64,000 bases of DNA from Bacteroidota bacterium (GTDB lineage Bacteria; Bacteroidota; Bacteroidia; Bacteroidales; GCA-2748055). How positions within the stretch are numbered: position 1 is the stretch's first letter; each line of letters begins with the position of its first letter. A program made the position numbers and the translations under genes. Below the pieces are notes generated by a model. The model saw only the letters and a list, made by a program, of their open reading frames with translations, had not been told where the DNA came from and made no database searches. Of the stretch, positions 21,596 through 43,386 are shown piece by piece. Location: positions 4,448 through 68,447 of the forward strand of contig JBDLIX010000006.1 of the NCBI GenBank assembly GCA_039714655.1. The letters run 5' to 3'.

Positions 21596-22300
21596 CTAAG
21601 TGAAAGATTTTAATCTACCCTTTTCACTCCAGCTGTCCTGGTCATGCCGATAGAGGTGGATGGGCATGGATCTGGCCAGCTCCAGATAAAAGGGCATGAT
21701 TGAAAACCTCTTTTCTGCGGGGAAAAGTTTAAACACGGCCGGATCCATCACATGAATGCCACTGAAAGCAATGGGGATTAGCTGCTCTTCCCTTTCGTCC
21801 AGAAGAATGGTCTCCCCGGTACGATTATCCCGCCAACCTTTCAGGAGGCCTTCCCGATTCATAAGTAGGCTCCTGGTAGTCACCCGCTCTTTCACTGCCA
21901 ATGTAGCAATGGCCCTGTTTTTCACATGTGCCTCTAACAAATGAGTCAGGTCAATATCACTGATAACGTCCACATTATAAACCAGGAACGGTTTCTCCCC
22001 GAAAAACCAGGAGGCATGACCAATACCACCTCCCGTGTCAAGCAGTTCATCACGTTCATGTGAAAACTCAATGTGAATCCCAAAATGATCTTTTTGCTTT
22101 ATAAAATCTATGATTAACTCCGGGAAATGGTGTACATTGATAATAAGTTCGGTGAATCCCTGGTCCTTCAGTTTGAGGATCACATGTTCCAGGAGGGGAA
22201 CACCTTTCCACTCAAGCAAAGCCTTGGGTTTGTGATCTGTTAACGGCTGCAACCTGGTGCCCAGGCCAGCCGCCAGGATCATCGCTTTATTTCCTAACAC
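21596..22300 (-). CDS. Sugar-phosphate nucleotidyltransferase (MurU-like)
   Basis: AMILAAGLGTRLQPLT..KPKAL, LLDTGGG and YNVDV; short single-domain NTP transferase. MurU specificity is inferred from context only. Confidence 0.75.
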   Translation of the reverse strand: MLGNKAMILAAGLGTRLQPLTDHKPKALLEWKGVPLLEHVILKLKDQGFTELIINVHHFPELIIDFIKQKDHFGIHIEFSHERDELLDTGGGIGHASWFFGEKPFLVYNVDVISDIDLTHLLEAHVKNRAIATLAVKERVTTRSLLMNREGLLKGWRDNRTGETILLDEREEQLIPIAFSGIHVMDPAVFKLFPAEKRFSIMPFYLELARSMPIHLYRHDQDSWSEKGRLKSFT

Positions 22301-22325
22301 AAAAAGAGGTTTTTGTTGAAATCAA

Positions 22326-22502
22326 TCAGGCAGTGGTCCAGAAACACCTTTTGGGAGAGACAATCCTGCCCTCGGCCTTCAAAACCTTCATGGACTTATC
22401 AACCTCTTTCTTATCCAGGCTGGCAGCTTCGGCAATCTCCCCGGCTTTAAGCGGTTCTGTAGAGGATTCGAGTGTTTTAAATACAATTTCGATGGTTTCC
22501 AT
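22326..22502 (-). CDS. Small winged-helix protein, 58 aa (missing from ORF track)
   Basis: Manual translation: [58 protein letters not shown]. Starts 2 bp after the regulator's stop codon. Confidence 0.8.
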
Positions 22503-22504
22503 AA

Positions 22505-23251
22505 TTATCGAATACTATTGTTATAATGATTACCAAGATTCATGTGTTTTTCATAGATCGACTTTGTCCGAAGAAGATGTTCTTTCATAACCTGATACGC
22601 CTGATCACCATCCTGATCCCTGATCGCATACAAAATCTGATTGTGGTAGTTCAGGGTGTGGGCCTTTTCTCCATCAATATTACCATAAATATAGTTGCGC
22701 ATCCTGGGCAAAAGTGAATAGATGGGTTCCATGGTAATCTGCATAATCGGGTTGGAAGTAGATTTGGTAATACTTAAATGGAATTTATTGTCCAGGTCAG
22801 TCTCCTTCTGAGTATTGTCGGGATCGCAATTTTCAAATTCAGAATGGATCTCCTCCAGTTCGGAAATGTTTGCATCTGTTCTGTTCTGAGCTGCCAGTCT
22901 GGCAATCTCAGGCTCGAACAGAAGCCTCACTTCAATGATCTGGGCAATTAAATTTTTATCAAATTTCAGATCATAATAGAGGTTCAGGGATTTTATGGCA
23001 TCCTCAATGTTAATCTCAGTAACATACATCCCACTCCCCTTCTGAATGGTGATAAGTCCCCTGGCACTCAGCCTCCTCAAAGCTTCCCTCAAAGCCGTCC
23101 TGCTCACCCCAAAAGATTCACACATCTCTCTTTCGGTGGGAAGTTTGGAACCCACAATCAGCTTCTTCTCTCTGATTGCACTCTCCAGTGTCCGCTCAAT
23201 ACGCTGGCTCAGAGTAAGCTTGCTCCCAATATTTTGAAAAATATCATCCAT
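22505..23251 (-). CDS. GntR family transcriptional regulator, FadR subfamily
   Basis: [23 protein letters not shown] wHTH; FCD domain ([16 protein letters not shown]); TATCTTTG on the minus strand at 23274-23281. Confidence 0.92.
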
Positions 23252-23319
23252 TCATTTAAAAATTCATTGGCGTCAAAGATACATTTTTACCTGTACAATA
23301 TATTATTCAGTTATTAACC

Positions 23320-24858
23320 TTATTCAATTCCTATGAGGTCACTCAGTTGACTCTCATTATTTAAACGATCCAGGGCCGATATCCGGTAGATTCCCGGAGC
23401 AATCCCACCCTTGAATAAAACACTCTTCTCTCCTACGACTCTTACTATATTCTTAGCTTTCTTAAGGAATCGTGTCTCACCCGGATCAAACCTGTATATC
23501 ACAAAAAACCTGGATCGATTCATTTCATCAGGCTCATCAACCACATCCCAGACCAGGGAGTTACCCATCACCCGCACATTGATCGGGGCCTGAGGAGCCA
23601 GGATATCGATCCACGGCATGGTTGGAACCAGGGAGGGATGTGAACAATATTGCTTCTGCAGCTTCCTGTTCATGGATTCAATATCCTTTCTGAAGAAATG
23701 TCTGCTGCTGAAATACCCGAAACCATCCAATCCTTCCAGGGAACGAATGATATCAATCTGATGCAGAAAATATTTCTCCTTTCTCCACAGCTTGTGTTCT
23801 GACTTCTTATCAATCCTGTATGGGGCCAATCCAATGTATACCGACCTGCCATATCCAAAATCGCTCCACCAGTAAGCCAGTGTGGAAAAGTCAACTGCCG
23901 GATGATCATCCCGCCAGTACAACTGCGGCATCAGATAATCGATCCACCCTTTACGTTGCCAGGAGATCACATCAGCGTAAAGATCGTCGAAATTGGTCGA
24001 ACCTGCAGATGTTTCTGAACCGATTGGATCCTGAGAGCGATTTCTCCATACCCCAAAAGGACTGATCCCGAATTTCACCCAGGGCTTTTCCGTTGTAATG
24101 GCTGCCTGGAGCAGCTGGATGATCGTATCCACATTATGCCTTCTCCAATCTTCCACGCTGTCTGGATAATAATTTCCTCCAAATCTTTCAAAGTCTATGC
24201 TATCGGGTAACGATTTCCCCTCGATCCTGTATGGATAAAAATAATCATCAAAATGAACCGCATCCACATCATACCGTTTGACAACATCCACTACTACCCT
24301 CTTTACAAAATCCCAGACCTCCGGATTTGCCGGTGAAAAATAGACTTTTGAGCCATAGGTAAAGATCCACTCAGGGTGACTCTGTATGACATGATCTTCA
24401 CTCAACTCATCATACATGTTCATTTTGATCCTGTATGGATTGAACCAGGCATGGAGTTCCATGCCCCTTATGTGTGACTCTTTGATCCAGAATTCAAGAG
24501 GATCATAGTAGGGCTCAGGTGCTTTACCCTGCTCTCCTGACAAAAACCTGGACCATGGTTCCAGCTCAGATGAATAGATCGCATCGGCGGAAGGTCTGAC
24601 CTGAAGTATGATGGCATTGGCACCATTCATTTTATGATGATCAAGGATCTTAATGATCTCTTCCTGTTGTATAGCAGTTGTAAGACCAGGCTTTGATGGC
24701 CAGTCAATGTTTGCCACTGTGGAAACCCATACGCCCCTGAATTCTCGCTTATCAGACTGTCCATTAATAGGATGTATGACAAATCCTAAGAGAGATACTG
24801 CCATAAGTAGATGACTCCGAAGAATATACATGAAGTATTGATTCATAGTATTTTCCAA
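23320..24858 (-). CDS. GHL10 (DUF187, YddW/DigH-like) glycoside hydrolase, signal peptide, no T9SS CTD
   Basis: EFRGVWVSTVANIDWPS, ELHAWFNPYR, VHFDDYFYPY, FGISPFGVWRN and DYLMPQLYW. True start may be ATG at 24846 or slightly further in. Confidence 0.88.
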   Translation of the reverse strand: MENTMNQYFMYILRSHLLMAVSLLGFVIHPINGQSDKREFRGVWVSTVANIDWPSKPGLTTAIQQEEIIKILDHHKMNGANAIILQVRPSADAIYSSELEPWSRFLSGEQGKAPEPYYDPLEFWIKESHIRGMELHAWFNPYRIKMNMYDELSEDHVIQSHPEWIFTYGSKVYFSPANPEVWDFVKRVVVDVVKRYDVDAVHFDDYFYPYRIEGKSLPDSIDFERFGGNYYPDSVEDWRRHNVDTIIQLLQAAITTEKPWVKFGISPFGVWRNRSQDPIGSETSAGSTNFDDLYADVISWQRKGWIDYLMPQLYWRDDHPAVDFSTLAYWWSDFGYGRSVYIGLAPYRIDKKSEHKLWRKEKYFLHQIDIIRSLEGLDGFGYFSSRHFFRKDIESMNRKLQKQYCSHPSLVPTMPWIDILAPQAPINVRVMGNSLVWDVVDEPDEMNRSRFFVIYRFDPGETRFLKKAKNIVRVVGEKSVLFKGGIAPGIYRISALDRLNNESQLSDLIGIE

Positions 24859-24945
24859 TATTTTTTCTCTAATTATAGTACAATATACAAATTTTTATCA
24901 TAGATTTGTCATACATATTACGTATTATTAGTATTATGTTATACA
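24772..24945. promoter_or_regulatory. Candidate FadR/GntR operator array in the divergent promoter
   Basis: ATGTATGACAAATC (24772-24785) and GATTTGTCATACAT (24903-24916) are exact reverse complements; third related core TGTTATACA at 24937-24945. Confidence 0.55.
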
Positions 24946-25047
24946 ACCCACCTTTTTCACCTGCTGTTTCAGCAACTCCATTCTCTAAGTGGACTCAACG
25001 GTTAATAGATCAAGCATTGCGAAATATTTTAACTAAAATCTTTAAAT

Positions 25048-26469
25048 ATGAAGAAACCTTTACTATTTATCATGGTTTTCCTTGTGTTATCATTTATAGG
25101 GTATGCACAGGGAGATACGACCTTTGTGGAGGTCTGGGCCCATTACGGCGAAAATGCACCTGAATGGTTTACCGATGGAAGCGAAGTAGAGCAGGGAGAT
25201 CCATCCTTTGCCGCCTCTGAGCGGGGAATCGTATACAGTGACTATTCAGGTCACCTATACGTTTCGAGCCGGCATCCCGAGGATGTTGACAGCGACGGCA
25301 CATTGGACTGGGGAGAGCCCCATGTGTATGTGCTGGATCCGGAAACCGGTGAAGCACCACAATTCGGTTTGGCCCAATTGCTTACAACCGGGATCAGATC
25401 CTCCGATGAATTCTTTGGTGGTGGCTATCCGCTGAACAATGTGACAAGCACGGTGGATGGCTCCATATTTGCATGCAACATGACCCTGGCCTCAGGACCG
25501 GATATTGTCAGCGATGGCGGTGTAACGGTGAAAGCCTTCAGGGTATACCGCTGGAGCTGGGAACAGGATATTCCCCAAACCATCATCGATTACAAGGAGG
25601 GTGGCTTCCGCCTGGGAGACAAGTTCAGCGTTATCGGGAACTGGGATGAAGAGGCCTACATCTACGCCGGTGCCGGAGAGACAAGCAAGTTGCTTCGCTG
25701 GAAAGTGACCGCTGGGGTGGTGGATGAAGCTCCCACCATCATAACTCTGCAGGATATTGCCAATGCCGGCACTTCTATTACAGTGGCACCTTCCATCAGC
25801 AAAGATGACTGGATCTATGTGAGTGGTAAAGGATTCTTGCCTACCCTGTTTACGACCGAAGGGGTCAACCTGACCCAGGTTTCCATCACCGCTGCTGATA
25901 TGCCATCTTCTCTTATTGCCGGCCGGACCATTGAATATAACGACAGGCTCTATATGGGCATGTTCAGCGGGGATCAGAGCGCTTTTGTCTTTGACATTAC
26001 CAAACATGGCGAGAATGTGACCGATGTGGATGTGATTGGCTTCTCTCCTGTTTTCGGAACCAAATATGACGATGCTTATGGTGAAGGTGCGGTAGAATTC
26101 GGGATTATTGAGGAGCAACTGCATCTATTTGTATGTGCTCCCAGTAATGGGATCGCATGCTACCGGATCGAGGGGATCAACCACACCTCTGTGGAAAAGA
26201 GAATCACCGAATCATTCCGGATATCTGCTTATCCAAATCCTGCCACAGAATTTGCCAATATAAGCTTCACGCTACCCATGGATGCCAATGGCGCCGTGGC
26301 TGTGAAGCTTTTTGACATGTCAGGCCGGTTTATGGGGATCACTGCTGACAAAGCAACCGGTGGAACCCAGGAGATGCGTCTAAACACTTCTGAACTATCA
26401 TCCGGTCAATACATCTTCCAGGTGGTATACAACAATGAAATCAACATCGGAAAACTAATTATTCAATAA
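25048..26469 (+). CDS. T9SS-secreted protein with putative beta-propeller (DUF4623-like) domain
   Basis: Signal peptide; ERGIVY...RLGDKFSVIG module; type A CTD (AYPNPA...LSSGQYIF...KLIIQ). Confidence 0.7.
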   Translation: MKKPLLFIMVFLVLSFIGYAQGDTTFVEVWAHYGENAPEWFTDGSEVEQGDPSFAASERGIVYSDYSGHLYVSSRHPEDVDSDGTLDWGEPHVYVLDPETGEAPQFGLAQLLTTGIRSSDEFFGGGYPLNNVTSTVDGSIFACNMTLASGPDIVSDGGVTVKAFRVYRWSWEQDIPQTIIDYKEGGFRLGDKFSVIGNWDEEAYIYAGAGETSKLLRWKVTAGVVDEAPTIITLQDIANAGTSITVAPSISKDDWIYVSGKGFLPTLFTTEGVNLTQVSITAADMPSSLIAGRTIEYNDRLYMGMFSGDQSAFVFDITKHGENVTDVDVIGFSPVFGTKYDDAYGEGAVEFGIIEEQLHLFVCAPSNGIACYRIEGINHTSVEKRITESFRISAYPNPATEFANISFTLPMDANGAVAVKLFDMSGRFMGITADKATGGTQEMRLNTSELSSGQYIFQVVYNNEINIGKLIIQ

Positions 26470-26493
26470 CATGTCTTACTAAATCATGCAACT

Positions 26494-29400
26494 ATGAGAA
26501 AAAGATTTACATTTTTAATGATGCTGGTTGCAGGTTTCCTCTTTTTTGGGAGTGACCTGGCAATGGCACAGGCTGAAGTCTGGAACAAGTCACATGTCTG
26601 GAATGCCGACCGGTATTACAGAGGACTCGCTTACAGCCCTTTGAATAACCACCTATATGTGGGTGGAACGGAAGGAGCCTATGTGGGTGATGCAGGCGGT
26701 ACTGTAAAAGAGGACAGCAAGATTCAGGTCCTTGATGCCGCTACCGGAGATTCTGTAACCACTCTTTCTCCCGCATCCGCAATGGGCGGTGACTGGGGAT
26801 ATGGCATCAGAGATGTTGAGGTCGATATGGAAGGGGGCATTTATGCCACCACTGGTACTTCGAATCAATACAATCCGGTACAGCTCTATTACTGGGCCAG
26901 TGAAGATGCAGAACCTGTTCAGTTATGGAAGGATGCTTCCGGAACTGCCGATGATTTTGGCGGTTCATTCAGTGTATATGGAAGTTTTTCCCATGAGGCA
27001 CTCATCATCATTCCCTTTGTCAATGTGGCCAAGGTGTATTATTTCGAAGTCGTTGACGGTGTGCTGGGCGAAGTAAAGACCCTTGATCTGACAGGACTCA
27101 CAAGCGTGAGGACTCCCACCGTACAGGCTCTTGGAGCGAAAATAGCGGATGGATTCTGGTACAATAACGTGGCGCTTCCGGGACCGGTTAAGTTTGACGG
27201 ATCCGGAAACATTACAGCAACAGTTCCTGCCGAAGTGTTTGCAACGCCTACCACAGGTGATTGTAAATTCGTTCAAATGGCACCTTTTGAGGCTCTGGTT
27301 ATTTCTGATTCGGGAAGTGTTGTAGCCATCAATATTACAGGTAAAGCTGCAGATCTGTCAGATGTGACCGCAGCAGATATACTGATGACTCTGCCGGGAA
27401 CTCCTCCGATCCATCAATCCATATGGCCGCACGTTTACGGTAACGGACAAGAGCAGATAGCCCTCGGTAATCCTGATGGTGGCTGGGCCATTTATTCATT
27501 ATCAGGAGGCAACTATGTAGCTGCCGTTGCAGGGGATGGAGCACCTACAGCGACCAACCTGAGCTTTAGCGGAAATCCTGTTGTGGCTGATGTGATTACT
27601 GCAGAATATCAATATATCGATTTTAACAATGACCTGGAAGGAACCTCAGAGATCAAGTGGTATGTGGCTGATGATGACGAGGGTACAGGTAAAGCTGAGA
27701 TCACTGCCAATGCTGGTAACCTGACCTACACACTGGATGCAGTTGATGAGGGTAAATACATCAGTTTCACAGTATTACCAGTTTCATCAACCGGGGCTAC
27801 CACCTCCAGTGCCTTGCATTTGGTCGAATCGGCAGCTTTCGGACCCGTACTGGCAGCAGCCAATCCTCCTGTAGCCAGCGATGTGGCTATCAGCGGAACC
27901 CTCTGGGCAGGAGAAATCCTTACCGGTAGTTATACCTATAGCGATGCCAATGGGGACTCTGAAGGAGAATCCGTGATCGAATGGTACCGTGCAGATGAAA
28001 CGGATACACTTCTTGTCAGCTCCGGTGGCCTGGAATATACCCTTGTAGATGCTGATACAGGTAAATATATCATATTGAGTGTTACACCTGTAGCTGAGGC
28101 AGGATGGTTCACAATTGGTGAGACTGTCAGTGCAGTAACTGCCGATACAGTATCGCCTCCACCACCCATACCTCCGGTGGCTTCTGAGCTTGGCATTACA
28201 GGCCGTGAAGAGGTAGCTGGTATTTTAACAGGAAGCTATACCTACACAGACTACAACGGAGATGCTGAGGCAGAAACCATATTAAAATGGTATCGGGCTG
28301 ATGATGCTATCGGGACCGGCAAAGTTGAGATTGTCGCCGATACCAACATGTATACCGTTGCAGTTGAAGATGAAGCTAAATATATATTGTTTGAAGTAAC
28401 CCCCATATCCGTAGAAACAGTCGGTATTGATACCGGTGTTGTGGTGATGGTCGCAACAGGTGTAATTGGTCCGGAACCCGCGGCTGAAGCGCCGGTGGCA
28501 ACCGATGTAATGATACACGGCACGGCCGAAGTTGGCGTTGTACTCTATGGTACCTATACGTATACCGACCGTACTGATGATCCTGAAGGAGCATCTGTCC
28601 ACTCATGGTATACGGCTGATGATACCCTCGGAACCAACCTTGCACCGGTTGCCGGTGCAGATGATAACGCCCTTCTGGTAACGGAAGATATGATTGGCAG
28701 TTACGTGGGATATGGAATTACCCCGGTTGCCACAGTAGGTGACCTGCTCACTGGTGAACTGGTCATTGTTCCTTCTGAAACTGTTGTCGCTGCATCCACC
28801 AATGATGGTGACTTTGAGCGTGTTTGGATGAGAGCTGCCAAACACAATGCGATTCCTGAATATATGGGGAGCGGAAATACCGAGCGTGGATTTGCAGTTG
28901 GGGCTGACCATATTTACATTGCCAGCAGGAATGGCGGAACGAACCTGCTTGTTGTCGATAAGAGCGATGGTACACTGATCACAAAAATGAATACCGAAGG
29001 CATGGATGCCGGGTTGTATAAGATCAGTGATGTGGAAGTTTCTGACGACGGTCAGATACTCGCCTGTCCGCTGACACTGAATGCAAGTGCGGCAACAGGA
29101 TGGGGTGCCGGATTATTTACCATCTACAAATGGACCGATGAACTGTCAGCTCCTGTAAAATGGATTGAATACCAGGCTTCTGAAAAGATGCGTCTTGGTG
29201 ATAAATTCACTGTCACAGGTGATGTCTCCGGAGATGCAGTGATTTATGCTGCAGCACCGGAAGGAAAAGTGGTCCGCTGGATTGTCACCGGTGGTATACC
29301 CGATACCGGCACTGAATTATCGCTGGAGGGTTTATCTACATTGGGAGTGACTCCTGCTGTAGTCCCATTCCAACCAACTGCAGACTCAGACTTCCTGGTG

Positions 29401-30627: not shown

Positions 30628-30638
30628 ACTTCTCATAT

Positions 30639-30680
30639 ATGAAGGGCGGACAGTAATCTGTCTGCCCTTCATTTTATTTC
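30639..30680 (+). terminator. Intrinsic terminator-like hairpin inside the operon
   Basis: ATGAAGGGCGGACAG-TAAT-CTGTCTGCCCTTCAT is a 15-bp stem with one G-U pair, followed by TTTATTTC. Confidence 0.8.
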
Positions 30681-30711
30681 TTTCCTAAACAGATCATTTA
30701 TCTCTCCTATA

Positions 30712-31419: not shown

Positions 31420-31430
31420 GAAATGTCTAC

Positions 31431-33832: not shown

Positions 33833-36800
33833 ATGAACAGAATCTTTTTGATCTTTGCAGCGTTACTAGTTGCAATCAACCTGCATGGGCAGGTACGGAC
33901 AATCACTGGACAGGTGAAAGACCAGACCGGTGAAACATTGATCAGTGCCACAGTAGTTGTGCAGACCGAGAGCGGAGCTTCACAGACGGGAACAACTACT
34001 GATCTGGATGGGAATTTCACACTCAATATTCCCGAAGGGTCTAATTCACTATTTATCTCTTACATCGGCTACGAGAGTAAGGTGGTGGATATCACCGGAT
34101 TAACCGAAGTGGAAATCATCTTGAACCAATCCACCACTCAGCTGGAAGATGTGGTTGTAACCGCCCTGGGAATCAAGAAAGAGAAGAAAGCACTGGGGTA
34201 TGCTTTTTCAGATGTGAAGGGTGAAGAACTCACCACCAACAGGGACGTAAACTTTATCAACTCCATCAGCAACAAAGTGGCCGGAGTAAATATCTCTCAG
34301 ACAGCCGGGGGAGCAGGAACCTCCTCCAGGATCGTAATCCGGGGAATTAAGTCACTCTCCACGGAGAGTCAACCACTGATCGTTGTGGACGGTGTCCCCA
34401 TGGACAATGCATCGGACGGCGCTTCCTGGTTGGGTGGACTCGATTACGGGAATGCACTGATGGGAATTTCACCCGATGACATCGAAACCATGTCTGTTCT
34501 GAAGGGCCCCAATGCTGCCGCACTGTATGGTTCAAGGGCAGCCACCGGTGTAATCCTGATCACGACCCGGAAAGGAACCGAGCGGGACCGCCTCAGGGTG
34601 ACACTGAACACAAATTTTATGATTGACAGGGCCTACCTGGTGGCCGACTACCAGAATGAATATGGTGCAGGTTTTAGCGGAGCCATACAGTACCAGGCAC
34701 TTAGTGAGAGTCAGCAGGAAGAGCATGGGGTTGATTCGGCCTATTACTACTACTCTACAGGTAGCTGGGGACCCAAAATGGACGGGACTATGGAGGTGCT
34801 GAACTGGAATAACGAGTTCTATACCCTCACTCCCCAGCCAAACAATGTATCAGACTACTTTAATCAGGGATACACCCTTACCAATTCCGTTGCCGTTGAG
34901 AATGGCTCCGAGAAGTTCAACTGGAGATTTTCCGCAAGTGCACTGAATAACAGCGGCCTGAAGCCCAATAGCACCTACAACCGGAAGACGGTGAACTATA
35001 ACATGAACTCAAAGCTGAATGAGATGTTCAGCCTCAGCTTTAAGGCCAACTATATCCGCGAGGATGCCTTTAACCGGGTGGGCCAGGGAGATGCCCGGAC
35101 TGGTGCCAGAACCTTTATCTGGATGCCTCGCAGCATCAACACAAACACCCTTCGGGATGACCATATGAGTGATAATGGTTATGAACAGAACTGGTATTTT
35201 GCCAGTGACTGGCATACCAATCCCTATTGGGAGGCTTATGAAAACTATAACAACGACAACAAGGACCAATTTACCGGATACGGCAAAATTGATATGCAAA
35301 TCACTCCCTGGCTCAAGGGCTTTATCAGGAGTAGTATGGACACTTACACTTCGAAACGGTACCTGAGGATAGCCAACAATGCCCTCCGGGCAAACGGTGA
35401 AGGTGCATTTACTGAACGCTGGGTTAACTATCGGTCGTTGAATCATGACTTCCTGCTGACCGCAGAAAAAAACTTTGGAGATGACCTGAACCTGATGGTG
35501 CATGCCGGAGGAAATTACTACAACTACGCTGTGGATTATCAGTCCTCCTCCATTGTGGGTCTGGCAGTTCCCAACTTCTTCTCCCTGAACAACCCTAAGT
35601 ATCCGGCTGAGACATCGGTGGGAACATCAAAAAGAGAGAAAGTGATCCAGTCCTTCTATGGCTCAGCCCAGCTGAATTATAAATCATGGCTATACACGGA
35701 ATTAACCGCACGAAATGACTGGTCCACCACCCTGCCGCTTCATAATAACTCCTATTTCTACCCATCTGTGAACAGCAGTGTGGTATTTACCGAGTTGCTG
35801 GGAATGAACAAGAACACGTTAAGTTTTGGAAAGGTACGCTTCTCCTACGCTTTTGTAGGGAATGATACGGATCCCTACCGATTATCTTCCGCCTATATCA
35901 GTCAGCAATACGGTGATGTACCTGCGGTTTACCTCACAAACGAGCGGGGCAATCCGAATCTGAAACCTGAACGGACCGGTTCATGGGAAGTGGGAGCTGA
36001 CCTGCGGTTCTTTATGAGCAGAGTGACCATGGATGTGACCTATTATAATGAGACAACCTATGACCAGATTGTCTCTGCAGAGATCTCCAAAGCTTCTGGT
36101 TTTGCAAAGGTGGTCACCAATGGCGGGGAGATCTCCAACAAGGGTGTTGAGATACAGATGAACTTCAAACCGGTTAAGTCACCTGATCTGAACTGGGATA
36201 TATCAGTGAACTTTGCCAAGAATCAGAACATGGTGCTATCCCTGGCAGGTGGTTTGTCCCAGCTAACCATTACCAATGAAAGTCAAATCGATATAGTTGC
36301 TGTCCCCGGACAACCCTATGGTGAGATCCTTGGAACCCGGCTGGCACGATACTACAGGAGAGATGACCAGGGCAATGTGATCGATGATCCCAACAATGGC
36401 AAACCCCTGATCGGTGAAGACGGTTACTATATTGCGGAAGAGCGGGGGGTGATCGGGAATGTAACCCCGGACTGGACCGGAGGCATCACCAATGCACTGC
36501 GATATAAAGAGCTCTCCCTCTCCTTCTCCATTGGTGTACAGAAAGGGGGAGATCTCTTCTCCAAGACCAACAAGTATGGCCTGGACAACGGTCAGTTTGT
36601 AGAAACCCTTGAGGGCCGGGAGTCCTGGTATGCAGCCACCTCTGAAGAGCAATTATCAGGAAGTGTGGGATACGTAGCTGACGGGGTACTGGCCGATGGT
36701 TCAGAAAACACAAGAGGTATTGATCCTCAGATGTACTGGCACCAGCGCAAATGGGGCGGGATCGCAGAGCTGGATGTCTATGATGCCACCTATGTGAAAT

Positions 36801-37030
36801 TAAGAGATGTAACCCTCAACTACAATTTGCCATCGGCATGGTTCGGGGACGGTTTTATTCAGAGTGCCTCACTGGCACTTGTGGGCAGAAACCTCTGGCT
36901 CATATACAGTGGAGTGCCCAACATTGATCCGGAATCCTCCTTCACCTCCAATAACAACGGGATCGGACAGGAATATGCGGCCATGCCCACCACAAGATCC
37001 ATTGGATTTAATTTGAAACTTGTCTTTTAA
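33833..37030 (+). CDS. susC: SusC/RagA TonB-dependent outer membrane transporter
   Basis: VVVTALGIK, PLIVVDGVP, DIETMSVLKGPNAAALYGSRAATGVILITT, NPNLKPE and C-terminal Phe. Start moved to ATG 33833 (MNRIF). Confidence 0.95.
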   Translation: MNRIFLIFAALLVAINLHGQVRTITGQVKDQTGETLISATVVVQTESGASQTGTTTDLDGNFTLNIPEGSNSLFISYIGYESKVVDITGLTEVEIILNQSTTQLEDVVVTALGIKKEKKALGYAFSDVKGEELTTNRDVNFINSISNKVAGVNISQTAGGAGTSSRIVIRGIKSLSTESQPLIVVDGVPMDNASDGASWLGGLDYGNALMGISPDDIETMSVLKGPNAAALYGSRAATGVILITTRKGTERDRLRVTLNTNFMIDRAYLVADYQNEYGAGFSGAIQYQALSESQQEEHGVDSAYYYYSTGSWGPKMDGTMEVLNWNNEFYTLTPQPNNVSDYFNQGYTLTNSVAVENGSEKFNWRFSASALNNSGLKPNSTYNRKTVNYNMNSKLNEMFSLSFKANYIREDAFNRVGQGDARTGARTFIWMPRSINTNTLRDDHMSDNGYEQNWYFASDWHTNPYWEAYENYNNDNKDQFTGYGKIDMQITPWLKGFIRSSMDTYTSKRYLRIANNALRANGEGAFTERWVNYRSLNHDFLLTAEKNFGDDLNLMVHAGGNYYNYAVDYQSSSIVGLAVPNFFSLNNPKYPAETSVGTSKREKVIQSFYGSAQLNYKSWLYTELTARNDWSTTLPLHNNSYFYPSVNSSVVFTELLGMNKNTLSFGKVRFSYAFVGNDTDPYRLSSAYISQQYGDVPAVYLTNERGNPNLKPERTGSWEVGADLRFFMSRVTMDVTYYNETTYDQIVSAEISKASGFAKVVTNGGEISNKGVEIQMNFKPVKSPDLNWDISVNFAKNQNMVLSLAGGLSQLTITNESQIDIVAVPGQPYGEILGTRLARYYRRDDQGNVIDDPNNGKPLIGEDGYYIAEERGVIGNVTPDWTGGITNALRYKELSLSFSIGVQKGGDLFSKTNKYGLDNGQFVETLEGRESWYAATSEEQLSGSVGYVADGVLADGSENTRGIDPQMYWHQRKWGGIAELDVYDATYVKLRDVTLNYNLPSAWFGDGFIQSASLALVGRNLWLIYSGVPNIDPESSFTSNNNGIGQEYAAMPTTRSIGFNLKLVF

Positions 37031-37032
37031 AG

Positions 37033-38580
37033 ATGCAGATCATGATCAGAAAGAAATATTTATACGTTGTCCTGATGGCAGGGATCCTGTCATCGGCATG
37101 CACCAAGAATTTCGAGGAAATCAATTCCAATCCGAATAATCCAAATACATCGGATGAGGAGTATGTATTCAATTACGTATTAAAAGAGGGGGCCGGAGAG
37201 TACGGATTCCAGAATACATATAACATCACCTATGTACAGCGCTGGATCATGCAGACAGCAGCTGTTTGGGGCAACTCAACCATGCCTCCATACACACTTT
37301 TTGACCAGTACCGGATACAAAACCTCTGGTCATATTACTATTCAAACCTTTTACTCAACTGCACAGTCCTTGAGGATATGACTGCTGATGATCCGGAAGA
37401 TATGAACAAGCACCAGGTGGCACGCATCTGGAAAGCATACTGTTTCCACAGGGTCACCGATATCTGGGGCGATGTCCCCTATTCAGAAGCATGGAAACTC
37501 CTTGATGAATATTCACAGGAAAATATATCCCCGGCGTATGATACCCAGGAAGATATCTATGCCGATCTGCTGGCAATCCTGGAAAACGCAGCATCAACCA
37601 TCGATCCTTCTGAAACCTTTTATGCAAACGACATGCTCTTTGATGGCGACCTTGATCTCTGGATCAGGTTTGCCAATTCGCTTCGCCTCAGGCTGGCAGT
37701 CAGAAGTGGCAACCAGCAGGTGGTTGCCCAGCTCATTTTGGAAGAGAACCTGATGAGATCCAGTGATGAAAGTGCATTGTTCCATTACATCGAGGACCAG
37801 ATATGGTGGAATCCCTATTATGAATTGAATGTGGATTCTAAAAACCCCAGCAATCCGGAGTTAACCGGAACCTCCAGTCCGAAGATCAGTGAACTGATGA
37901 CACGGCAACTCGAAGAGACCGTTGATCCCAGGCTTGCCATCCTCGCCCAACCCATGGAGTTGGACAATATGACCTACCGGGGTGTTCCCAACTTAATGAA
38001 TTCTACCATAAAGGAGAATCAGGCCATGGGGATGGGTGTTTCCAGCACCTCCTACATTGGACTGCACTTTACCAATAATCCGATCCATATAAATCCTGTG
38101 CTGACCTATGCAGAGGTTTGCTTCCTCAGGGCAGAAGCAGCTTTCAGGGGATGGACCACAGAAAATGCACAACAGTGGTATGAGGAAGGGATCAAAAATG
38201 CCATCACATATTATGGGATCTCTGAAGAGGATGCAGACCTGTTCCTTTTGGGCAATGGAGCTTATGACAATACACTGGAGCAGATCATGGTACAGAAATG
38301 GATCGCACTCTTTCTGAATGGCTGGGAGGCATGGGCTGATTACAGGAGAACAGGTTTCCCCCAGCTGAAGAAATGGGACCTGGTTTTGGATGGGATCAAG
38401 ATTAAAAGTGCGGAATGGGTGGATATCCCGAGGGATTATCTTCCAGGCAGGTTGCCCTATCCCGATGATGAGCTGGATCTGAATAAGGACAATTATGAGG
38501 CTGCTGTTAACAACCAGGGAGGCGACTCCTATTATCAGCAGGTATGGTGGTCAAGGAAATTTGGGGAGATAGGGTATTAG
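37033..38580 (+). CDS. susD: SusD/RagB nutrient-binding lipoprotein
   Basis: Lipobox ILSSAC-TKNFEEINSNPN, TDIWGDVPYSEA, TYAEVCFLRAEAA, QKWIALF..GWEAWADYRRTGFP; directly follows susC. Confidence 0.93.
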   Translation: MQIMIRKKYLYVVLMAGILSSACTKNFEEINSNPNNPNTSDEEYVFNYVLKEGAGEYGFQNTYNITYVQRWIMQTAAVWGNSTMPPYTLFDQYRIQNLWSYYYSNLLLNCTVLEDMTADDPEDMNKHQVARIWKAYCFHRVTDIWGDVPYSEAWKLLDEYSQENISPAYDTQEDIYADLLAILENAASTIDPSETFYANDMLFDGDLDLWIRFANSLRLRLAVRSGNQQVVAQLILEENLMRSSDESALFHYIEDQIWWNPYYELNVDSKNPSNPELTGTSSPKISELMTRQLEETVDPRLAILAQPMELDNMTYRGVPNLMNSTIKENQAMGMGVSSTSYIGLHFTNNPIHINPVLTYAEVCFLRAEAAFRGWTTENAQQWYEEGIKNAITYYGISEEDADLFLLGNGAYDNTLEQIMVQKWIALFLNGWEAWADYRRTGFPQLKKWDLVLDGIKIKSAEWVDIPRDYLPGRLPYPDDELDLNKDNYEAAVNNQGGDSYYQQVWWSRKFGEIGY

Positions 38581-38619
38581 TCGAAAGTCGTCGTACAGTT
38601 GAAAGTGGGAAAGTTGAAA

Positions 38620-41600
38620 ATGGGAAAGTCTATTGTTATATCAATTATGTTGTCTGTCGTTGCATTGAGCGCTGCAGCAGCACAGGAGGAAAGCAAACAC
38701 GAACTGCGTTCCACCTGGATCGCTACGGTAGCCAATATTGACTGGCCCAAATATGAGCACAGGGAGAAACCTGACCAGCAGAAACAGGACCTTTTAGAGA
38801 TGCTGGATCTCTACCGCAGCATGAACCTTAATGCCATTTTTCTCCAGGTACGGCCTGAATGCGATGCGCTATACCAATCGGCTTACGAACCCTGGTCACG
38901 TTTTCTCACATGGAACCAGGGAACCGATCCGGGTTATGATCCCCTGCAGTTCGCTTTGGAGGAAGCTCACAAACGGGGTATTGAAATGCATGTATGGCTT
39001 AACCCTTACAGGATTAATGCATCCACCAGCGATGGAGAAGATTACTACCACTCCACACATATCTACAGCGAACATCCCGAATGGGCTATCGAATATGTAT
39101 CAGGAAAAAAGATCCTGAATCCGGGAAGGCCCGAAGTGATGAGCTATATCGGATCCATTGTGAGGGATATTGTCTTGAATTACCAGGTGGACGGTGTACA
39201 TTTTGACGACTACTTCTATGCTTATGAGGGCACACCATCGGTGCTGGATGCCAATGAATTTGAGACCTATGGCGGGGGTATGTCACGGGATGACTGGCGC
39301 AGGGATAACGTAAACCGTATGATAGATACTGTTTACAAAGTGATCCAGGAGGTGAATCCCTCCATCCGGTTTGGGGTAAGTCCCTTCGGTATTTACAGGG
39401 ATGGTGTCCCACCGGGAATCATCGGATTTGATGCTTACAATACCATTTATTGTGATCCCCTGGCATGGTTGAGAGCCGGAAGTGTGGATTATATCACACC
39501 TCAGATATACTGGCCCACAGGTGGAGCACAGGATTTTGAAACACTGGTTAACTGGTGGGCAGACTCCTGTTTCAGGTACGAAAGGCACCTTTTCCCAGGT
39601 CACGGCACCTATAAGCTTCCGGATAATCCCGGAGTTAAAAAGTCAGCCCCCTATGATGCCCTGCTTCATGAATCGAAGTACTATATGGAGCTGCATCTTT
39701 CTCAACATGAGATGCAAATACTTAAAGGAACCGGTGACCCTGCAGCTCCCTGGACATTGGGACAGATCGGTACACAGATCGACATTATTCGTTCCAACCG
39801 GGAGAAAAATGGGCTGGGAAGTCTGTTCTTCAGTGCCAAAGACTTCACCAGGGTGAGCGGACTGGCTGAATACCTGAGAGGAGATAAATATACCCATCCA
39901 GCCCTTATTCCCGAAATGGGCTGGAAACCGGATGACACTCCAGGAACCCCGCAGAATCTGAGGAGCGAGATCATAGGCGATGAATATCACATGGCCTGGG
40001 ACCATGCATTTTCAGGCAATGAAAGAGTTGCCATCTATGTTTCCGATGTGGAGAGTGATACCACTGTCATCATTCAGGAACCCTCAAATCTGCAGGAGAT
40101 CGTTTTCGGCAACACAGTACCACTTTCTGCCCTGGTCATCACACCGAACAGCACCATTACCGCAACGGTTGTTTCTGAAACAGGCAGGGAGGGGATTCCC
40201 TCTTCCCCACTCACACTTGATGAAACTGTCCCATTTGTGGAACTGATTACTCCGGCAGATGGAGATACAGTCGGTCAGGCTCATCTGTTCCAGTGGCAAT
40301 CTGATTTTACAGATCCCCAATACCAAATCCAGATCGCTACCAATGCAACCTTTAGCAACATCATTTATACATCTGGGTGGACTACCCACAACAGCATGTC
40401 CATTGATTCAGCCGGACTAAAAGGAGAGTCCAATTATTTCTGGAGGGTTCGGGGAAGTGATGGTGTTGCAGGTCCTTATTCAGGTGCCGGATCATTTGTT
40501 TCCGGATATCCCGAAGTGCCCGAATTCCTGTCACCCGAAAACCTTGATCAGAACGTTTCCACAAGACCCACATTCAGGTGGAGTGCCAGCGGAATAACAG
40601 AAAATGCAGTAGTCCAGATCTCGGAAAGCAGCACCTTTTTTCCTGTTGTAGCAGAAGCGTCATTCGATGCATCAGCCGGTCAGGGTACACTCTCCTTGCA
40701 ACTGGAGAAGGATACCTGGTATTACGCCAGGCTGCAGGGAAACAACAGCTATGGATCAAGCCCATATACCGGTTTTGTGACTTTCAAGACCTCCGCAGGT
40801 GATCTCCCGGATGTACAGATCATATCCCCTGAAGATCTGGACACAGTAGCTTCCTTTGACAAACTCCGCTGGGAAACCACCACCACAGAAGGAACTATTA
40901 CCTACCAGCTTGAGGTTGCCATGGATGAGGCATTTTCAGGAACCATATACCGTTCGGAATGGATCAGTGAGAATGAACTACTAATCTCAGAGATGAATCT
41001 GGAAGGGAAACGCAGCTATTTCTGGAGGGTGAAAGGAAAAAGTGAATTCGGAGAGGGCGAATTCAGCATTTCACCAAGTTTCTTTACCGGATATCCAACC
41101 AGACCATCGATCACACAACCACTGCACCTTTCGGAAGGAATTAATGCTAAACCTCTGATAGGTTGGAATGTGGATGATGACACCGACTCCGTCTTTGTGG
41201 AGTTCTCAGAAGAGAGTGATTTCAGCACCCTCACCCACTCCGAGACCTTTGCTGCTGTACCAGACACTGCCAGTATTTCAGCATCCCTCAGAGGGTTTAC
41301 CTGGTACTACTTACATATCCGGGCAGAAAACAAGTTTGGAAGAGGTGTCGCCAGTGCTAAAAAGTATTTCATGACCGGCGAAGGAACTGACATCCAGCTT
41401 ATTATGCTGAACCAACAACAATTACTTGTCTACCCAACACCTTTCACAAATGGAACACTCTATATCAGGTATACCCTGAGTGAACCTGAGCATCTTAATC
41501 TTAAGATATTTGACCAAATGGGTAGGCAAATATATCAGGAACTTGTATCTTCAAGCCCGGGAGAATTATCCGTTGATATAGGAATTAAGCGTGATCTGTT

Positions 41601-41676
41601 CCCAACACCTGGAGTCTACTTTATCCAATTAAGCAATAACAGAATTTGTGGAATAGAATCTATTATCGTACACTAA
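38620..41676 (+). CDS. GHL10 (DigH-like) glycoside hydrolase with FN3-like repeats and T9SS CTD
   Basis: ELRSTWIATVANIDWP, HVWLNPYR, VHFDDYFY and DYITPQIYW; repeated Y.WRV.G FN3-like units; CTD VYPTPF...PGVYFIQL. Start moved to ATG 38620. Confidence 0.88.
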   Translation: MGKSIVISIMLSVVALSAAAAQEESKHELRSTWIATVANIDWPKYEHREKPDQQKQDLLEMLDLYRSMNLNAIFLQVRPECDALYQSAYEPWSRFLTWNQGTDPGYDPLQFALEEAHKRGIEMHVWLNPYRINASTSDGEDYYHSTHIYSEHPEWAIEYVSGKKILNPGRPEVMSYIGSIVRDIVLNYQVDGVHFDDYFYAYEGTPSVLDANEFETYGGGMSRDDWRRDNVNRMIDTVYKVIQEVNPSIRFGVSPFGIYRDGVPPGIIGFDAYNTIYCDPLAWLRAGSVDYITPQIYWPTGGAQDFETLVNWWADSCFRYERHLFPGHGTYKLPDNPGVKKSAPYDALLHESKYYMELHLSQHEMQILKGTGDPAAPWTLGQIGTQIDIIRSNREKNGLGSLFFSAKDFTRVSGLAEYLRGDKYTHPALIPEMGWKPDDTPGTPQNLRSEIIGDEYHMAWDHAFSGNERVAIYVSDVESDTTVIIQEPSNLQEIVFGNTVPLSALVITPNSTITATVVSETGREGIPSSPLTLDETVPFVELITPADGDTVGQAHLFQWQSDFTDPQYQIQIATNATFSNIIYTSGWTTHNSMSIDSAGLKGESNYFWRVRGSDGVAGPYSGAGSFVSGYPEVPEFLSPENLDQNVSTRPTFRWSASGITENAVVQISESSTFFPVVAEASFDASAGQGTLSLQLEKDTWYYARLQGNNSYGSSPYTGFVTFKTSAGDLPDVQIISPEDLDTVASFDKLRWETTTTEGTITYQLEVAMDEAFSGTIYRSEWISENELLISEMNLEGKRSYFWRVKGKSEFGEGEFSISPSFFTGYPTRPSITQPLHLSEGINAKPLIGWNVDDDTDSVFVEFSEESDFSTLTHSETFAAVPDTASISASLRGFTWYYLHIRAENKFGRGVASAKKYFMTGEGTDIQLIMLNQQQLLVYPTPFTNGTLYIRYTLSEPEHLNLKIFDQMGRQIYQELVSSSPGELSVDIGIKRDLFPTPGVYFIQLSNNRICGIESIIVH

Positions 41677-41700
41677 ATCTAAAGAAAAAGCATTAGCACA

Positions 41701-43386
41701 ATGATATTAATAGCAGACAGTGGCTCCACAAAAACCGATTGGAGATTAATCGATGGTGAGAAAGAGTATTCCATGTCAACCCGGGGGATCAATCCATACC
41801 ACTCCTCCACTGATGAAATTGCAGCAGAGTTGGATAAACTGGATGTGACCAAAGAGATAGAGAAAGTCCAGGATATTTTCTTCTATGGTTCCGGAGTAGC
41901 CAATGAGGCGATGAAAGAGGTGATGCGCAACTGCCTCCAACGTAAATTTGGTGAGAACACCAACATCCAGGTTGAAGATGATCTTACTGGAGTGGCACGG
42001 GCACTCTTTCTGCAGAATAACGGCATTGCCTGCATCCTTGGAACCGGTTCCAATTCGTGCCTTTACAAGGATGGTGAGATCCAGGATAAGGTACCTGCCC
42101 TGGGGTATTCCCTGGGTGATGAAGGGAGCGGTACCGATATTGGTAAACGACTTGTGAATGCGCTGTTAAAGAGAAACCTGAGTGATCAATTAAGAGAGGC
42201 GATTATTTCCGAAGAGGGACTTTCCGAGAACGAGATCCTGGAGAATGTATATAAGAAACCTCACGCAAACCGGTACCTTGCATCTCTTACGAAGATTGCT
42301 GGAAAATATATTGAACACAAGGAGATCAGGGAGATCGTATCCGAGGCATTTGACGACTTTATCCAAAAGAATATTTCAAAATACAAGGATTATGAAACCT
42401 CTGAAATTGGATTTGCAGGTTCTGTGGCCTATCATTTCAGCGAAATCCTCGCTGATGTACTCAAAAAACAACAACTGAAGTTCAGTCAGATCATCGCCAC
42501 GCCCATTGAGGGTCTGGTCAAATATCACAGGGAGGTAAAAACAACAAAGGCGAAGAGTACCGAATCCATCACAGAATCATCCTCCAGGTATGATAACCTT
42601 GAGAAAATGTCGGTGAAAGAGTTGCTGGCCAACATCAACAGGGAGGATAGTACCGTACACAAAGCGGTCCACACCATTATTCCTCAGATTCAAAAACTTG
42701 TGGAGGGCATCATACCCCGCATTATGAAGGGGGGGCGACTGTTCTATGTGGGAGCCGGGACCAGTGGCAGGTTAGGGATTTTAGATGCATCTGAGATCCC
42801 CCCCACCTTTGGTGTACCATATGACATTGTGATCGGGATCATCGCCGGGGGTGACAAAGCGATTCGAAAGGCTGTTGAATCGGCCGAAGATGATTTTCAC
42901 GGAGCCTGGCGCGACCTGGCCAAGTTTAAGCCCGGTAAAAATGATGTTATTGTAGGGATTGCTGCTTCGGGCAGAACTCCCTATGTGATCGGAGCAGTCA
43001 GAGACGGCAGGAATAATGGTCTCCTGACAGGTTGCATTACCTGTAATCCCAACTCCCAACTGGCCAAAGAGGTGGATGTCCCCCTGGAGGCCCTTGTGGG
43101 ACCTGAATTTGTAACAGGAAGTACGCGTATGAAGGCAGGAACTGCCCAAAAACTGATCCTGAATATGATTACCACTTCCACCATGATCAAGCTGGGAAAG
43201 GTGAAAGGCAACAAGATGGTGGATATGCAACTCACCAACAAAAAACTGGTGGAGCGGGGTTCCCGGATGATCAGTGATGAACTGGGCATCGACATGGAGG
43301 AATCACAACGCCTGCTGCTTCTGCACGGATCGGTCAGGAATGTTCTGGACATCTACAATATCGACAATCCCGAACAGAAATATTAG
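41701..43386 (+). CDS. murQ: Fusion of BadF/BcrAD-type amino-sugar kinase (MurK-like) and MurNAc-6-phosphate etherase MurQ
   Basis: N-half: ILIADSGSTKTDW, CILGTGSNS, LGDEGSG. C-half: GAGTSGRLGILDASEIPPTFG, ESAED, GIAASGRTPYV, GPEFVTGSTRMKAGTAQK. Confidence 0.92.
   Translation: MILIADSGSTKTDWRLIDGEKEYSMSTRGINPYHSSTDEIAAELDKLDVTKEIEKVQDIFFYGSGVANEAMKEVMRNCLQRKFGENTNIQVEDDLTGVARALFLQNNGIACILGTGSNSCLYKDGEIQDKVPALGYSLGDEGSGTDIGKRLVNALLKRNLSDQLREAIISEEGLSENEILENVYKKPHANRYLASLTKIAGKYIEHKEIREIVSEAFDDFIQKNISKYKDYETSEIGFAGSVAYHFSEILADVLKKQQLKFSQIIATPIEGLVKYHREVKTTKAKSTESITESSSRYDNLEKMSVKELLANINREDSTVHKAVHTIIPQIQKLVEGIIPRIMKGGRLFYVGAGTSGRLGILDASEIPPTFGVPYDIVIGIIAGGDKAIRKAVESAEDDFHGAWRDLAKFKPGKNDVIVGIAASGRTPYVIGAVRDGRNNGLLTGCITCNPNSQLAKEVDVPLEALVGPEFVTGSTRMKAGTAQKLILNMITTSTMIKLGKVKGNKMVDMQLTNKKLVERGSRMISDELGIDMEESQRLLLLHGSVRNVLDIYNIDNPEQKY

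Follow-up and report, generated by a model that had tools for sequence, protein, structure and literature searches.

A candidate SusCD utilisation locus for extracellular peptidoglycan in a Bacteroidota genome

Can a bacterium of the phylum Bacteroidota live on the cell walls of other bacteria by means of a dedicated polysaccharide utilisation locus (PUL)? Peptidoglycan constitutes a large share of bacterial necromass, and we know of no account of how diderms bring a cross-linked wall polymer across the outer membrane. The question is raised by a divergent locus within 64,000 nucleotides (nt) of contig JBDLIX010000006.1 (positions 4,448–68,447, forward strand) of assembly GCA_039714655.1, an uncultured Bacteroidota bacterium of the order Bacteroidales (GCA-2748055); this whole stretch, called the window below, is contained in two DNA sequencing runs of one marine-metagenome study, with no RNA run among the holders listed. 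The locus combines a SusC-type transporter and a SusD-type lipoprotein with a predicted N-acetylmuramoyl-L-alanine amidase, two GHL10 glycanases, a kinase fused to the N-acetylmuramic acid (MurNAc) 6-phosphate etherase MurQ and a GntR/FCD regulator. Judging from sequence, we consider it fairly likely that this is a PUL for the extracellular peptidoglycan of other bacteria, be it from dead cells, shed wall or prey. Feeding on foreign peptidoglycan had been proposed in a first-pass annotation of the window, and is supported by predicted protein export, the kinship of the GHL10 enzymes, the presence of MurA and MurB in the genome, the accessory distribution of the genes and their recurrence elsewhere; feeding as opposed to salvage is the part of that proposal which we infer from these. 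Gene content, protein families, catalytic residues, export signals, synteny and the completeness of the pathway in the genome were computed directly.

According to the open reading frame (ORF) map and to Pfam and NCBIfam scans, the locus holds 12 genes, three in the minus arm and nine in the plus arm, where intergenic gaps are 2–84 nt (eight plus-arm ORFs are listed by name in Table 1, the last being the kinase-MurQ fusion). The genes named in the first-pass annotation are all present, with ends that agree with the ORF map, and its list had missed two proteins of 473 and 1377 amino acids (aa) with type IX secretion system (T9SS) tails and a 235-aa PD40-like protein. The divergent SusCD layout that it described, with enzymes and a GntR/FCD regulator alongside adjacent SusC and SusD genes, is borne out and corresponds to that of Sus-like PULs: susC and susD are separated by 2 nt and accompanied by co-located, co-oriented enzymes and a regulator (two GHL10, amidase, GntR/FCD). 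The grouping goes beyond chance, because the whole 5.75-Mb genome has just two strong GHL10 genes and one MurQ gene, all of which are found here, and because the complete gene order is repeated in another metagenome-assembled genome (MAG), L001, at 53–91% identity, with parts of the locus in L002 and L003 (genomes are cited as G numbers, from samples of 201 genomes of the order and 401 of the phylum, contigs as C numbers and loci as L numbers).

The amidase matches Amidase_3 at 65.5 bits (cut-off 27), and its residues H38, E54, H110 and E191 are invariant in 7 relatives and in 12/12 relatives at 25–68% identity, with E191 aligned opposite the Glu in the second 3ne8 stretch. We take H38, E54 and H110 to be the His/Glu/His metal ligands and E191 to be the catalytic Glu of the family. 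The two GHL10 hydrolases of the first-pass annotation were likewise recovered, both passing the Pfam PF02638 cut-off of 27.9 bits (Table 1). GHL10-A aligns with Cwp19 of C. difficile (PDB 5oq2) with an E-value of 4.1e-89 and GHL10-B with the Cwp19 catalytic domain at 1.1e-83, and all 13 residues of the proposed Cwp19 active site (W36, Q77, W127, R132, D195, D196, Y197, S250, Q295, Y297, G328, F367 and S368; numbering of PMC5765458, publications being cited throughout from the parts of their text that were available) are identical in the alignment with GHL10-B; those of GHL10-A were read by eye in the translation and not from an alignment. Cwp19 is described as a lytic transglycosylase acting on the bond between MurNAc and N-acetylglucosamine (GlcNAc), with some hydrolysis at unsubstituted MurNAc (PMC6016235), and E. 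coli DigH as degrading denuded strands only (PMC12288456). The likeness of DigH (YddW) and Cwp19 to GHL10-A and GHL10-B lies in the catalytic family, and DigH follows amidases, taking strands that they have denuded, an order likewise proposed for this locus. For DigH and Cwp19 the target is the wall of the producer itself, during division and autolysis, whereas GHL10-B is encoded in a SusCD operon and, unlike them, carries Ig/Fn3-like modules and a T9SS export tail.

Such tails were scored against the curated cut-offs for Por_Secre_tail (Pfam, 27 bits) and TIGR04183 (23 bits), and exceed them in three of the four proposed exports, the 473-aa and 1377-aa proteins and GHL10-B (TIGR04183 28.9 bits); the signal peptides have a Gln after the likely cleavage site. 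GHL10-A (N-terminus ...ING|QS, no C-terminal tail found), which is presumably periplasmic, and the PD40-like protein would be expected to stay in the periplasm because they lack such a tail. The 473-aa protein is probably a beta-propeller, and each of its 71 homologues is an unnamed T9SS protein of a Bacteroidales or Salinivirgaceae MAG. In the 1377-aa protein an N-terminal domain paralogous to it (hhalign probability 98.2%, E 5e-14 over 297 columns, between the 473-aa family and residues 1–499) is followed by Ig-like repeats and the T9SS tail. Atlas neighbours of both proteins belong to generic beta-propeller/T9SS clusters and serve as leads only. Position and architecture make the two proteins candidate surface binding proteins. 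Kinship of the 473-aa family with a PKD protein found at the same place in G029 was rejected (hhalign probability 0.6%).

At the cytoplasmic end of the proposed pathway, the MurK-MurQ pair of the first-pass annotation turned out to be a single fused ORF, also present as such in L001 (556 aa); in other genomes with a match over both halves, stops split it into two genes. The MurQ half passes both TIGR00274 (305.9 bits; equivalog cut-off 302) and NF003915 (362.2 bits; cut-off 168), and in the PDB the fusion matches MurQ 4s12 at 253.7 bits and Tannerella forsythia MurK 8oqw and 8ow9 at 183.9 and 182.9 bits. The kinase half groups with T. forsythia MurK, K1058, PG1100 and BT Q8A1P1, and at ~183–184 bits for MurK against ~172 bits for the slow paralogue K1058 the scores do not separate these two. 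Its D94 aligns with the catalytic D95 of MurK, and P-A-L stands opposite S133-P134-L135 with no bulky Glu or His there; small residues at S-P-L give MurK space for the lactyl ether (PMC10465942). Of the MurK features, the catalytic Asp and the small residues are kept, and T94, F34 and F35 are not. As the pocket differs at these three positions, MurNAc is proposed as the kinase substrate mainly because of the fusion to MurQ.

The element that is most constant across versions of the locus is the pair formed by the amidase and the PD40-like protein encoded 11 nt upstream of it. The copy of the latter in the window has no Pfam match, and its relatives do match PD40; the family comprises 353 cluster representatives (E ≤1e-30), mostly of about 300 aa. 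A PD40-like homologue lies immediately upstream of the amidase in 13/13 further genome loci, from several classes across the phylum, and one is present in 76 of 80 metagenome amidase loci (several of the 80 being near-duplicates and many short), two of the four exceptions being without upstream sequence. In L036 (G181:C4, 11318–15124) a natural fusion of 1268 aa has an N-terminal PD40-like domain followed by Amidase_3, with no T9SS tail detected. These patterns suggest that the PD40-like protein is a dedicated amidase partner; it may work with the enzyme as an activator, a chaperone or a safety catch in periplasmic transit. Two kinds of neighbour of the pair were observed in passing. Outside the Bacteroidales, pairs at L051 5306–7807, L057 12619–14835 and L059 4722–7166 lie near a T9SS GH18, a T9SS endonuclease I and an alpha-amylase, the targets of which are likewise dead-cell polymers, an anecdotal observation. 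Two T9SS proteins of the NAGPA (phosphodiester glycosidase) type are found near the pair in L031 (G029:C1, 6783–9323 and 15688–18120) and in L049 (G135:C22, 3429–5897 and 5917–8382); it is speculation that these enzymes could strip phosphodiester-linked wall polymers, such as teichoic acids, off MurNAc.

The remaining steps of the pathway can be sought in the rest of the genome. It contains MurA and MurB, on account of which MurNAc auxotrophy was rejected, and other contigs encode three NamZ, AnmK, three AmpG-like proteins (one beside a SpoIID-like gene) and two NagA. Catabolic use of foreign peptidoglycan is therefore most likely. The first-pass annotation had cautioned that a NagZ/NamZ exo-hydrolase, AmgK and an inner-membrane transporter were absent, and this holds: of the other ORFs in the window, none of the 22 scanned is a NagZ, NamZ or AmgK or an obvious sugar transporter (those at 61049–62536 and 63172–63999, near the right end, are outside that scan); nor does ampG, namZ, lytB or murT adjoin murK-murQ in the scanned ORFs, the MurT family not having been searched by itself. 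Homologues of the T. forsythia scavenging operon occur on contigs C90, C110 and C139. The C90 cluster of such homologues (L045 158–9683) encodes NamZ, a xanthan-lyase-like protein of 1000 aa with Golvesin_C, a 488-aa GT2-domain protein and DUF4922, and is divergent from a 925-aa GlcD/GlpC-like FAD/Fe-S dehydrogenase, which could, as a speculation, oxidise the D-lactate released by MurQ. On C139 (L046 91–8852) there is a second SusC/SusD locus, with a NamZ exo-muramidase and a DUF6259 protein.

Regulation of the locus may be linked to the same pathway. The FadR-type regulator reported in the first-pass annotation holds up, with the GntR helix-turn-helix and the C-terminal FCD domain both above cut-off; its nearest NCBIfam model is NanR (147.6 bits, below the cut-off of 260). 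Regulator orthologues of 60–63% identity adjoin murK-murQ in G029 and G125. The window has exactly two copies of the 10-mer TGTCATACAT, which lie around the divergent promoter at a distance of 126 nt, and the copy at 24907–24916 overlaps a -7-like promoter box TAGATTTG at 24901–24908. The window shares the extended form ATTTGTCATACATC with the orthologous spacer in L001 and with the promoters of murK in G029 and G125, and each of the loci sharing it (L001, G029, G125) holds a regulator orthologue, at 60–91% identity. We take TAnnTTTG to be the form of the -7 box and T-GT-N3-AC-A to be the operator consensus, and the motif presumably fits operators of the FadR subfamily. The GntR/FCD protein would probably repress both arms from an operator at the divergent promoter and be released by a MurNAc-derived carboxylate. 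Motif matches in L013, L119 and L128 were set aside as apparently due to chance, their flanks being GC-rich.

Comparison with other genomes, a check that the first-pass annotation had called for, confirmed that the genes are co-located in other MAGs. In addition to the whole locus in L001, where the SusC counterpart is 83% identical, rearranged gene sets were found in distant Bacteroidales families, in G032, G181 (two loci), G029 and G055 (= L003). The order in G032 is MurK, MurQ, SusC, SusD, two surface-type proteins, GHL10-T9SS, PD40-like and amidase; in contig C1 of G181 it is MurK, MurQ, SusC, SusD, two proteins and GHL10, and in contig C4 of the same genome GH20, GHL10, the 1268-aa PD40-amidase fusion, SusC and SusD. 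G029 has SusC, SusD, two proteins, NAGPA-T9SS, GHL10, PD40-like, amidase and a further NAGPA-T9SS. GHL10 and a MurQ match are about 10 kb apart or less in at least six genomes (G000, G032, G181, G125, G007 and G158), and GHL10 is found elsewhere in at least ~21 other genomes (hand count among the matches listed). Relatives of GHL10-A with 39–45% identity adjoin murK-murQ or a kinase paralogue in G125, G007 and G086, and short GHL10-A-like genes are found beside murK-murQ in G125 and ~7–9 kb from it in G007 and G158. Queries with MurK-MurQ and GHL10 gave no match in G127, which belongs to the same genus and is 99% complete. In G135 the PD40-amidase pair opens an operon that continues with two NAGPA proteins, a K1058-like kinase, a xanthan-lyase-like protein, GT2, DUF4922, SpoIID, an AmpG-like permease and NamZ, then MurK and MurQ, the remainder of which is the gene set of the studied T. 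forsythia scavenging operon (compared with PMC5388701). The possibility that G135 is T. forsythia itself was rejected, as its MurK reaches 373 bits with the PDB MurK and has a closer relative in a B. thetaiotaomicron protein.

Taken together, these data allow a sequence of events to be proposed, in which the substrate, the order of steps, the regulation and the use as food rather than for salvage are what we infer. The T9SS would export the amidase, GHL10-B and the two putative beta-propeller proteins, which are probably anchored at the surface. The propeller proteins may hold the substrate as the amidase strips the stem peptides and GHL10-B, in the manner of DigH and Cwp19, cuts the denuded GlcNAc-MurNAc strands to oligomers. 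SusCD would import these oligomers, from which periplasmic GHL10-A and exo-muramidases of the NamZ type could produce MurNAc, anhydro-MurNAc, GlcNAc and disaccharides. Uptake into the cytoplasm might proceed through AmpG-like or other permeases, after which MurK-MurQ would convert MurNAc to GlcNAc-6-phosphate and D-lactate for use by NagA and glycolysis.

Several observations weigh against this interpretation. Among the 80 metagenome amidase loci, a MurK-like kinase was found in 19, GHL10 in 12 and SusC in 7, and the full composition of the locus is thus a minority arrangement there. Comparison of SusD with solved structures gave no relative with an informative ligand (best 5j5u, E 1.9e-45). 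The SusC phylogeny proposed in the first-pass annotation went against orthology: in a quick tree with Shimodaira-Hasegawa-like approximate likelihood ratio support only and a background of 10 paralogues from the same genome, the SusCs of peptidoglycan-linked loci fall into at least three clades, intermixed with unrelated paralogues of the genome, and those of different locus versions are not orthologous. SusC was therefore acquired on several occasions, and orthology does not settle what it carries; a link between wall enzymes and SusCD that was repeated, and not inherited once, argues for function and says nothing firm on cargo. One of the clades unites the SusC of contig C4 of G181 with that of the C139 locus of the genome studied here. 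In the kinase, Asp replaces T94 of the MurK pocket and Tyr/His replace F34/F35. The tail of the amidase itself reaches 21.5 bits in Por_Secre_tail, below the cut-off, with no TIGR04183 match, so that of the T9SS-secreted Amidase_3 in the first-pass annotation the enzyme stands and the secretion draws its support from the family, in which Por_Secre_tail is found in 9/12 members (E ≤0.01, best 2e-11) and CHU_C in 2/12; its C-terminus contains LYPNPV, with the YPNP motif. The locus contains no inner-membrane transporter and no exo-glycosidase. The 10-mer is not enriched genome-wide (14 copies against ~15.6 expected), and the argument for an operator therefore rests on position and orthology; it is also absent from the other peptidoglycan clusters on C90, C139 and C110. 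Finally, as the genome has no MurQ outside the locus, recycling of the organism's own wall may also depend on it.

The closest studied system, that of T. forsythia, serves salvage (PMC7670621, PMC5388701), and foreign peptidoglycan might here, too, be harvested mainly for the organism's own wall, a MurU-like enzyme routing MurNAc-1-phosphate to UDP-MurNAc. A MurU-like gene does stand at the edge of the locus and is kept at the same place in L001 (71% identity), and the PD40-amidase pair of G135 heads an operon of the T. forsythia type. The nucleotidyltransferase gene reported as MurU-like in the first-pass annotation is indeed present, with MurU as its best NCBIfam match, and its identity as MurU falls short of the equivalog cut-off (134.8 against 250 bits); it is the best match in the genome (runner-up 63 bits), and 0/14 control genomes reach the cut-off. 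A gap of 204 nt separates it from the regulator, and its membership of the locus is uncertain. No clear AmgK partner was found in the genome, the sole candidate scoring 56 bits against cut-offs of 500–550. This candidate, on C20 (L043 2604–4073), is a protein of 489 aa that combines the weak AmgK-like region with a RapZ-like C-terminus (115.6 bits). Since MurA and MurB are present with no auxotrophy, and MurK-MurQ constitutes the catabolic branch, we regard salvage as the main purpose as rather unlikely.

Three further explanations can be weighed. The exported enzymes could be weapons first, lysing living neighbours in antagonism or predation with uptake of the debris as a secondary gain. The wall of intact Gram-negative prey is shielded by its outer membrane, and nutrition is indicated by the close packing of the operon with SusCD and MurK-MurQ and by the link of the regulator to murK promoters. 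DigH-type enzymes also act on strands that are already denuded (PMC12288456), and we consider this explanation quite improbable even though exported wall hydrolases are capable of lysis, as Cwp19 shows by driving autolysis (PMC6016235), and the PD40-amidase pair stands beside T9SS GH18 and endonuclease I in other classes. At the other extreme, the amidase, its PD40-like partner and the GHL10s might serve the cell's own division or wall turnover, as E. coli DigH and AmiA/B/C do (PMC12288456), with SusCD nearby by accident; GHL10 is indeed common, in 66 of the 201 Bacteroidales genomes, and the sole MurQ lies here. That is very unlikely given T9SS tails predicted to put four proteins beyond the outer membrane, intergenic gaps of a few to some tens of nt that bind the genes to SusCD, an amidase type found in just 44 of the 401 phylum genomes and a same-genus genome in which the MurK-MurQ and GHL10 queries found nothing. 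The GHL10s and SusCD could, lastly, act on poly-N-acetylglucosamine, a chitin-like glycan or a secondary wall polymer, with MurK-MurQ merely co-located: the closest fold relative of Cwp19 is PgaB (structure paper, PMC5765458), some solved relatives of SusD bind chitin or mixed-linkage glucan, and the substrate range of GHL10 is barely explored. We give this very little credence, as the chemistry of Amidase_3 and MurQ is particular to MurNAc, GHL10, amidase and MurK-MurQ are repeatedly linked in independent arrangements, and both characterised GHL10 enzymes, DigH and Cwp19, act on peptidoglycan according to the text available.

If, as we prefer, the locus serves feeding on foreign peptidoglycan, it extends rather than repeats known systems. 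The T. forsythia operon (Tanf_08345-08385: xanthan-lyase-like, two gtf, lytB, ampG, ybbC/namZ, murT, murK, murQ) shares with it the MurK and MurQ end of the pathway and the general course of events, in which foreign peptidoglycan loses its peptides and is then trimmed in the periplasm before uptake (PMC5388701, PMC7670621, 10.1101/2021.12.02.470905), and the genome studied here has homologues of that operon on C90 and a SpoIID and AmpG-like pair on C110. In the available text of the T. forsythia papers the outer-membrane importer is unnamed and the amidase is called "so far unidentified" (10.1101/2021.12.02.470905). Unlike that operon, the present locus encodes a putatively exported amidase, an exported GHL10 and SusCD together, MurK and MurQ are fused, the regulator is of the GntR/FCD type where T. 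forsythia has the hybrid two-component GppX, and the organism is not a MurNAc auxotroph. With classical PULs it has in common SusC/SusD, surface binders, endo-acting surface enzymes, a periplasmic enzyme, a regulator and the divergent layout. It differs from them in a predicted substrate that is a peptide-crosslinked heteropolymer, hence a peptide-removing amidase acting first, in surface proteins that are T9SS cargo and not lipoproteins, in the cytoplasmic catabolic MurK-MurQ within the operon and in a one-component GntR/FCD regulator. The B. subtilis cluster amiE-nagZ-namZ-murQRP likewise joins an amidase, wall glycosidases, MurQ, a transporter and a regulator to exploit wall material that stems from turnover or from lysed cells (10.1101/2021.12.02.470905), but is Gram-positive, with exo-acting enzymes and a phosphotransferase system transporter, and lacks outer-membrane import, GHL10 and the PD40-like partner altogether. 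Uncultured anaerobic Bacteroidetes have been enriched with peptidoglycan as sole substrate (PMC7511781), and PMC10877868 and PMC10266427 mention peptidoglycan genes in passing only, as far as their available text goes. In agreement with the first-pass annotation, no characterised peptidoglycan PUL was found in the literature searched, PULDB and paper supplements being outside its scope.

A broader reading, which we offer tentatively and whose parts are on balance doubtful as a set, would see here a dedicated wall-eating surface machine of the Bacteroidota, built on a T9SS-anchored amidase and a DigH-like glycanase. SusCD would then import peptide-free GlcNAc-MurNAc oligomers as a new class of cargo, and a MurNAc-sensing GntR/FCD repressor would control the whole set. 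The PD40-like protein would be an obligate periplasmic partner of the amidase, possibly a safety catch that spares the producer's wall during T9SS transit, and the PD40-amidase pair would be the "so far unidentified" amidase step of Tannerella-type salvage. The locus and its relatives provide concrete candidates for that amidase step and for the outer-membrane importer, and indicate a new family of amidase partners and a regulator with a proposed operator. If the peptidoglycan PUL is real, it would add a new substrate class to the SusCD repertoire and supply genes by which the turnover of necromass could be traced in sediments, digesters and guts, and it bears on the way in which gut Bacteroidales shape the pool of immune-active muropeptides. 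Relatives of the locus occur in marine, gut and rumen metagenome records, and cultured carriers should therefore exist.

Table 1 Features of the candidate peptidoglycan locus, in window coordinates.
Feature	Start	End	Strand	Length (aa)	Evidence
MurU-like sugar-1-phosphate nucleotidyltransferase	21596	22300	-	234	NTP_transferase 67.9 bits (Pfam)
GntR/FCD (FadR-subfamily) regulator	22505	23251	-	248	GntR 72.1 bits, FCD 88.2 bits, both above cut-off
GHL10 glycanase A (GHL10-A)	23320	24858	-	512	PF02638 241.6 bits; signal peptide, no T9SS tail
Candidate operator pair, TGTCATACAT twice, inverted	24772	24916	.		24907–24916 (+), 24772–24781 (-)
T9SS protein, function not assigned	25048	26469	+	473	Por_Secre_tail 44 bits; DUF4623 17.3 bits only
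T9SS protein	26494	30627	+	1377	IG_AIR9 x3 111.7 bits, Por_Secre_tail 49.2 bits, weak DUF5018
Terminator-like hairpin	30639	30672	+		15-bp stem, 8 G-C pairs, T tail; separates the two surface-protein genes from the remaining operon
PD40-like (TolB-type repeat) protein	30712	31419	+	235	Signal peptide, no tail; 11 nt upstream of amidase gene
Exported N-acetylmuramoyl-L-alanine amidase (predicted)	31431	33773	+	780	Amidase_3, CarboxypepD_reg-like, Big_5 x2, putative T9SS tail (below cut-off)
SusC-type TonB-dependent transporter	33806	37030	+	1074	CarbopepD_reg_2, Plug, beta-barrel domains
SusD-type lipoprotein	37033	38580	+	515	SusD-like_2 257.7 bits; lipobox ...SSAC
GHL10 glycanase B (GHL10-B)	38599	41676	+	1025	PF02638 235.5 bits; GHL10, Ig/Fn3-like region, T9SS tail
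Fused MurNAc kinase (1–280) and MurNAc-6-phosphate etherase MurQ (290–541)	41701	43386	+	561	BadF-type kinase and TIGR00274

The hairpin after the gene of the 1377-aa protein is the first listed and has the longest stem among 24 terminator-like sites in the window, and has a putative role in termination or attenuation. An Rfam scan of the window returned zero families, and a sigma-70 promoter scan gave 22 sites against 31.7 expected, such a scan being uninformative for Bacteroidota. The neighbour genes that were scanned are housekeeping genes. Directly downstream of the locus (43615–49952, minus strand) lies a heterodisulfide-reductase-like Fe-S/flavoprotein cluster including an FlpD domain, the first gene of which also follows the locus in L001; the cluster fits an anaerobic lifestyle. 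On the other side, a PAPS-reductase-domain gene (20853–21572, minus strand) follows the MurU-like gene after 23 nt. A 505-aa protein encoded at 52406–53923 (plus strand) has a CHU_C (type B) T9SS signal and bears no relation to the locus. Further to the left, at 12513–19548 on the minus strand, a PD-(D/E)XK nuclease (956 aa), a radical SAM protein and a UvrD-type helicase (1074 aa) stand in a row, an arrangement that resembles an AddAB-like repair pair into which a gene has been inserted.

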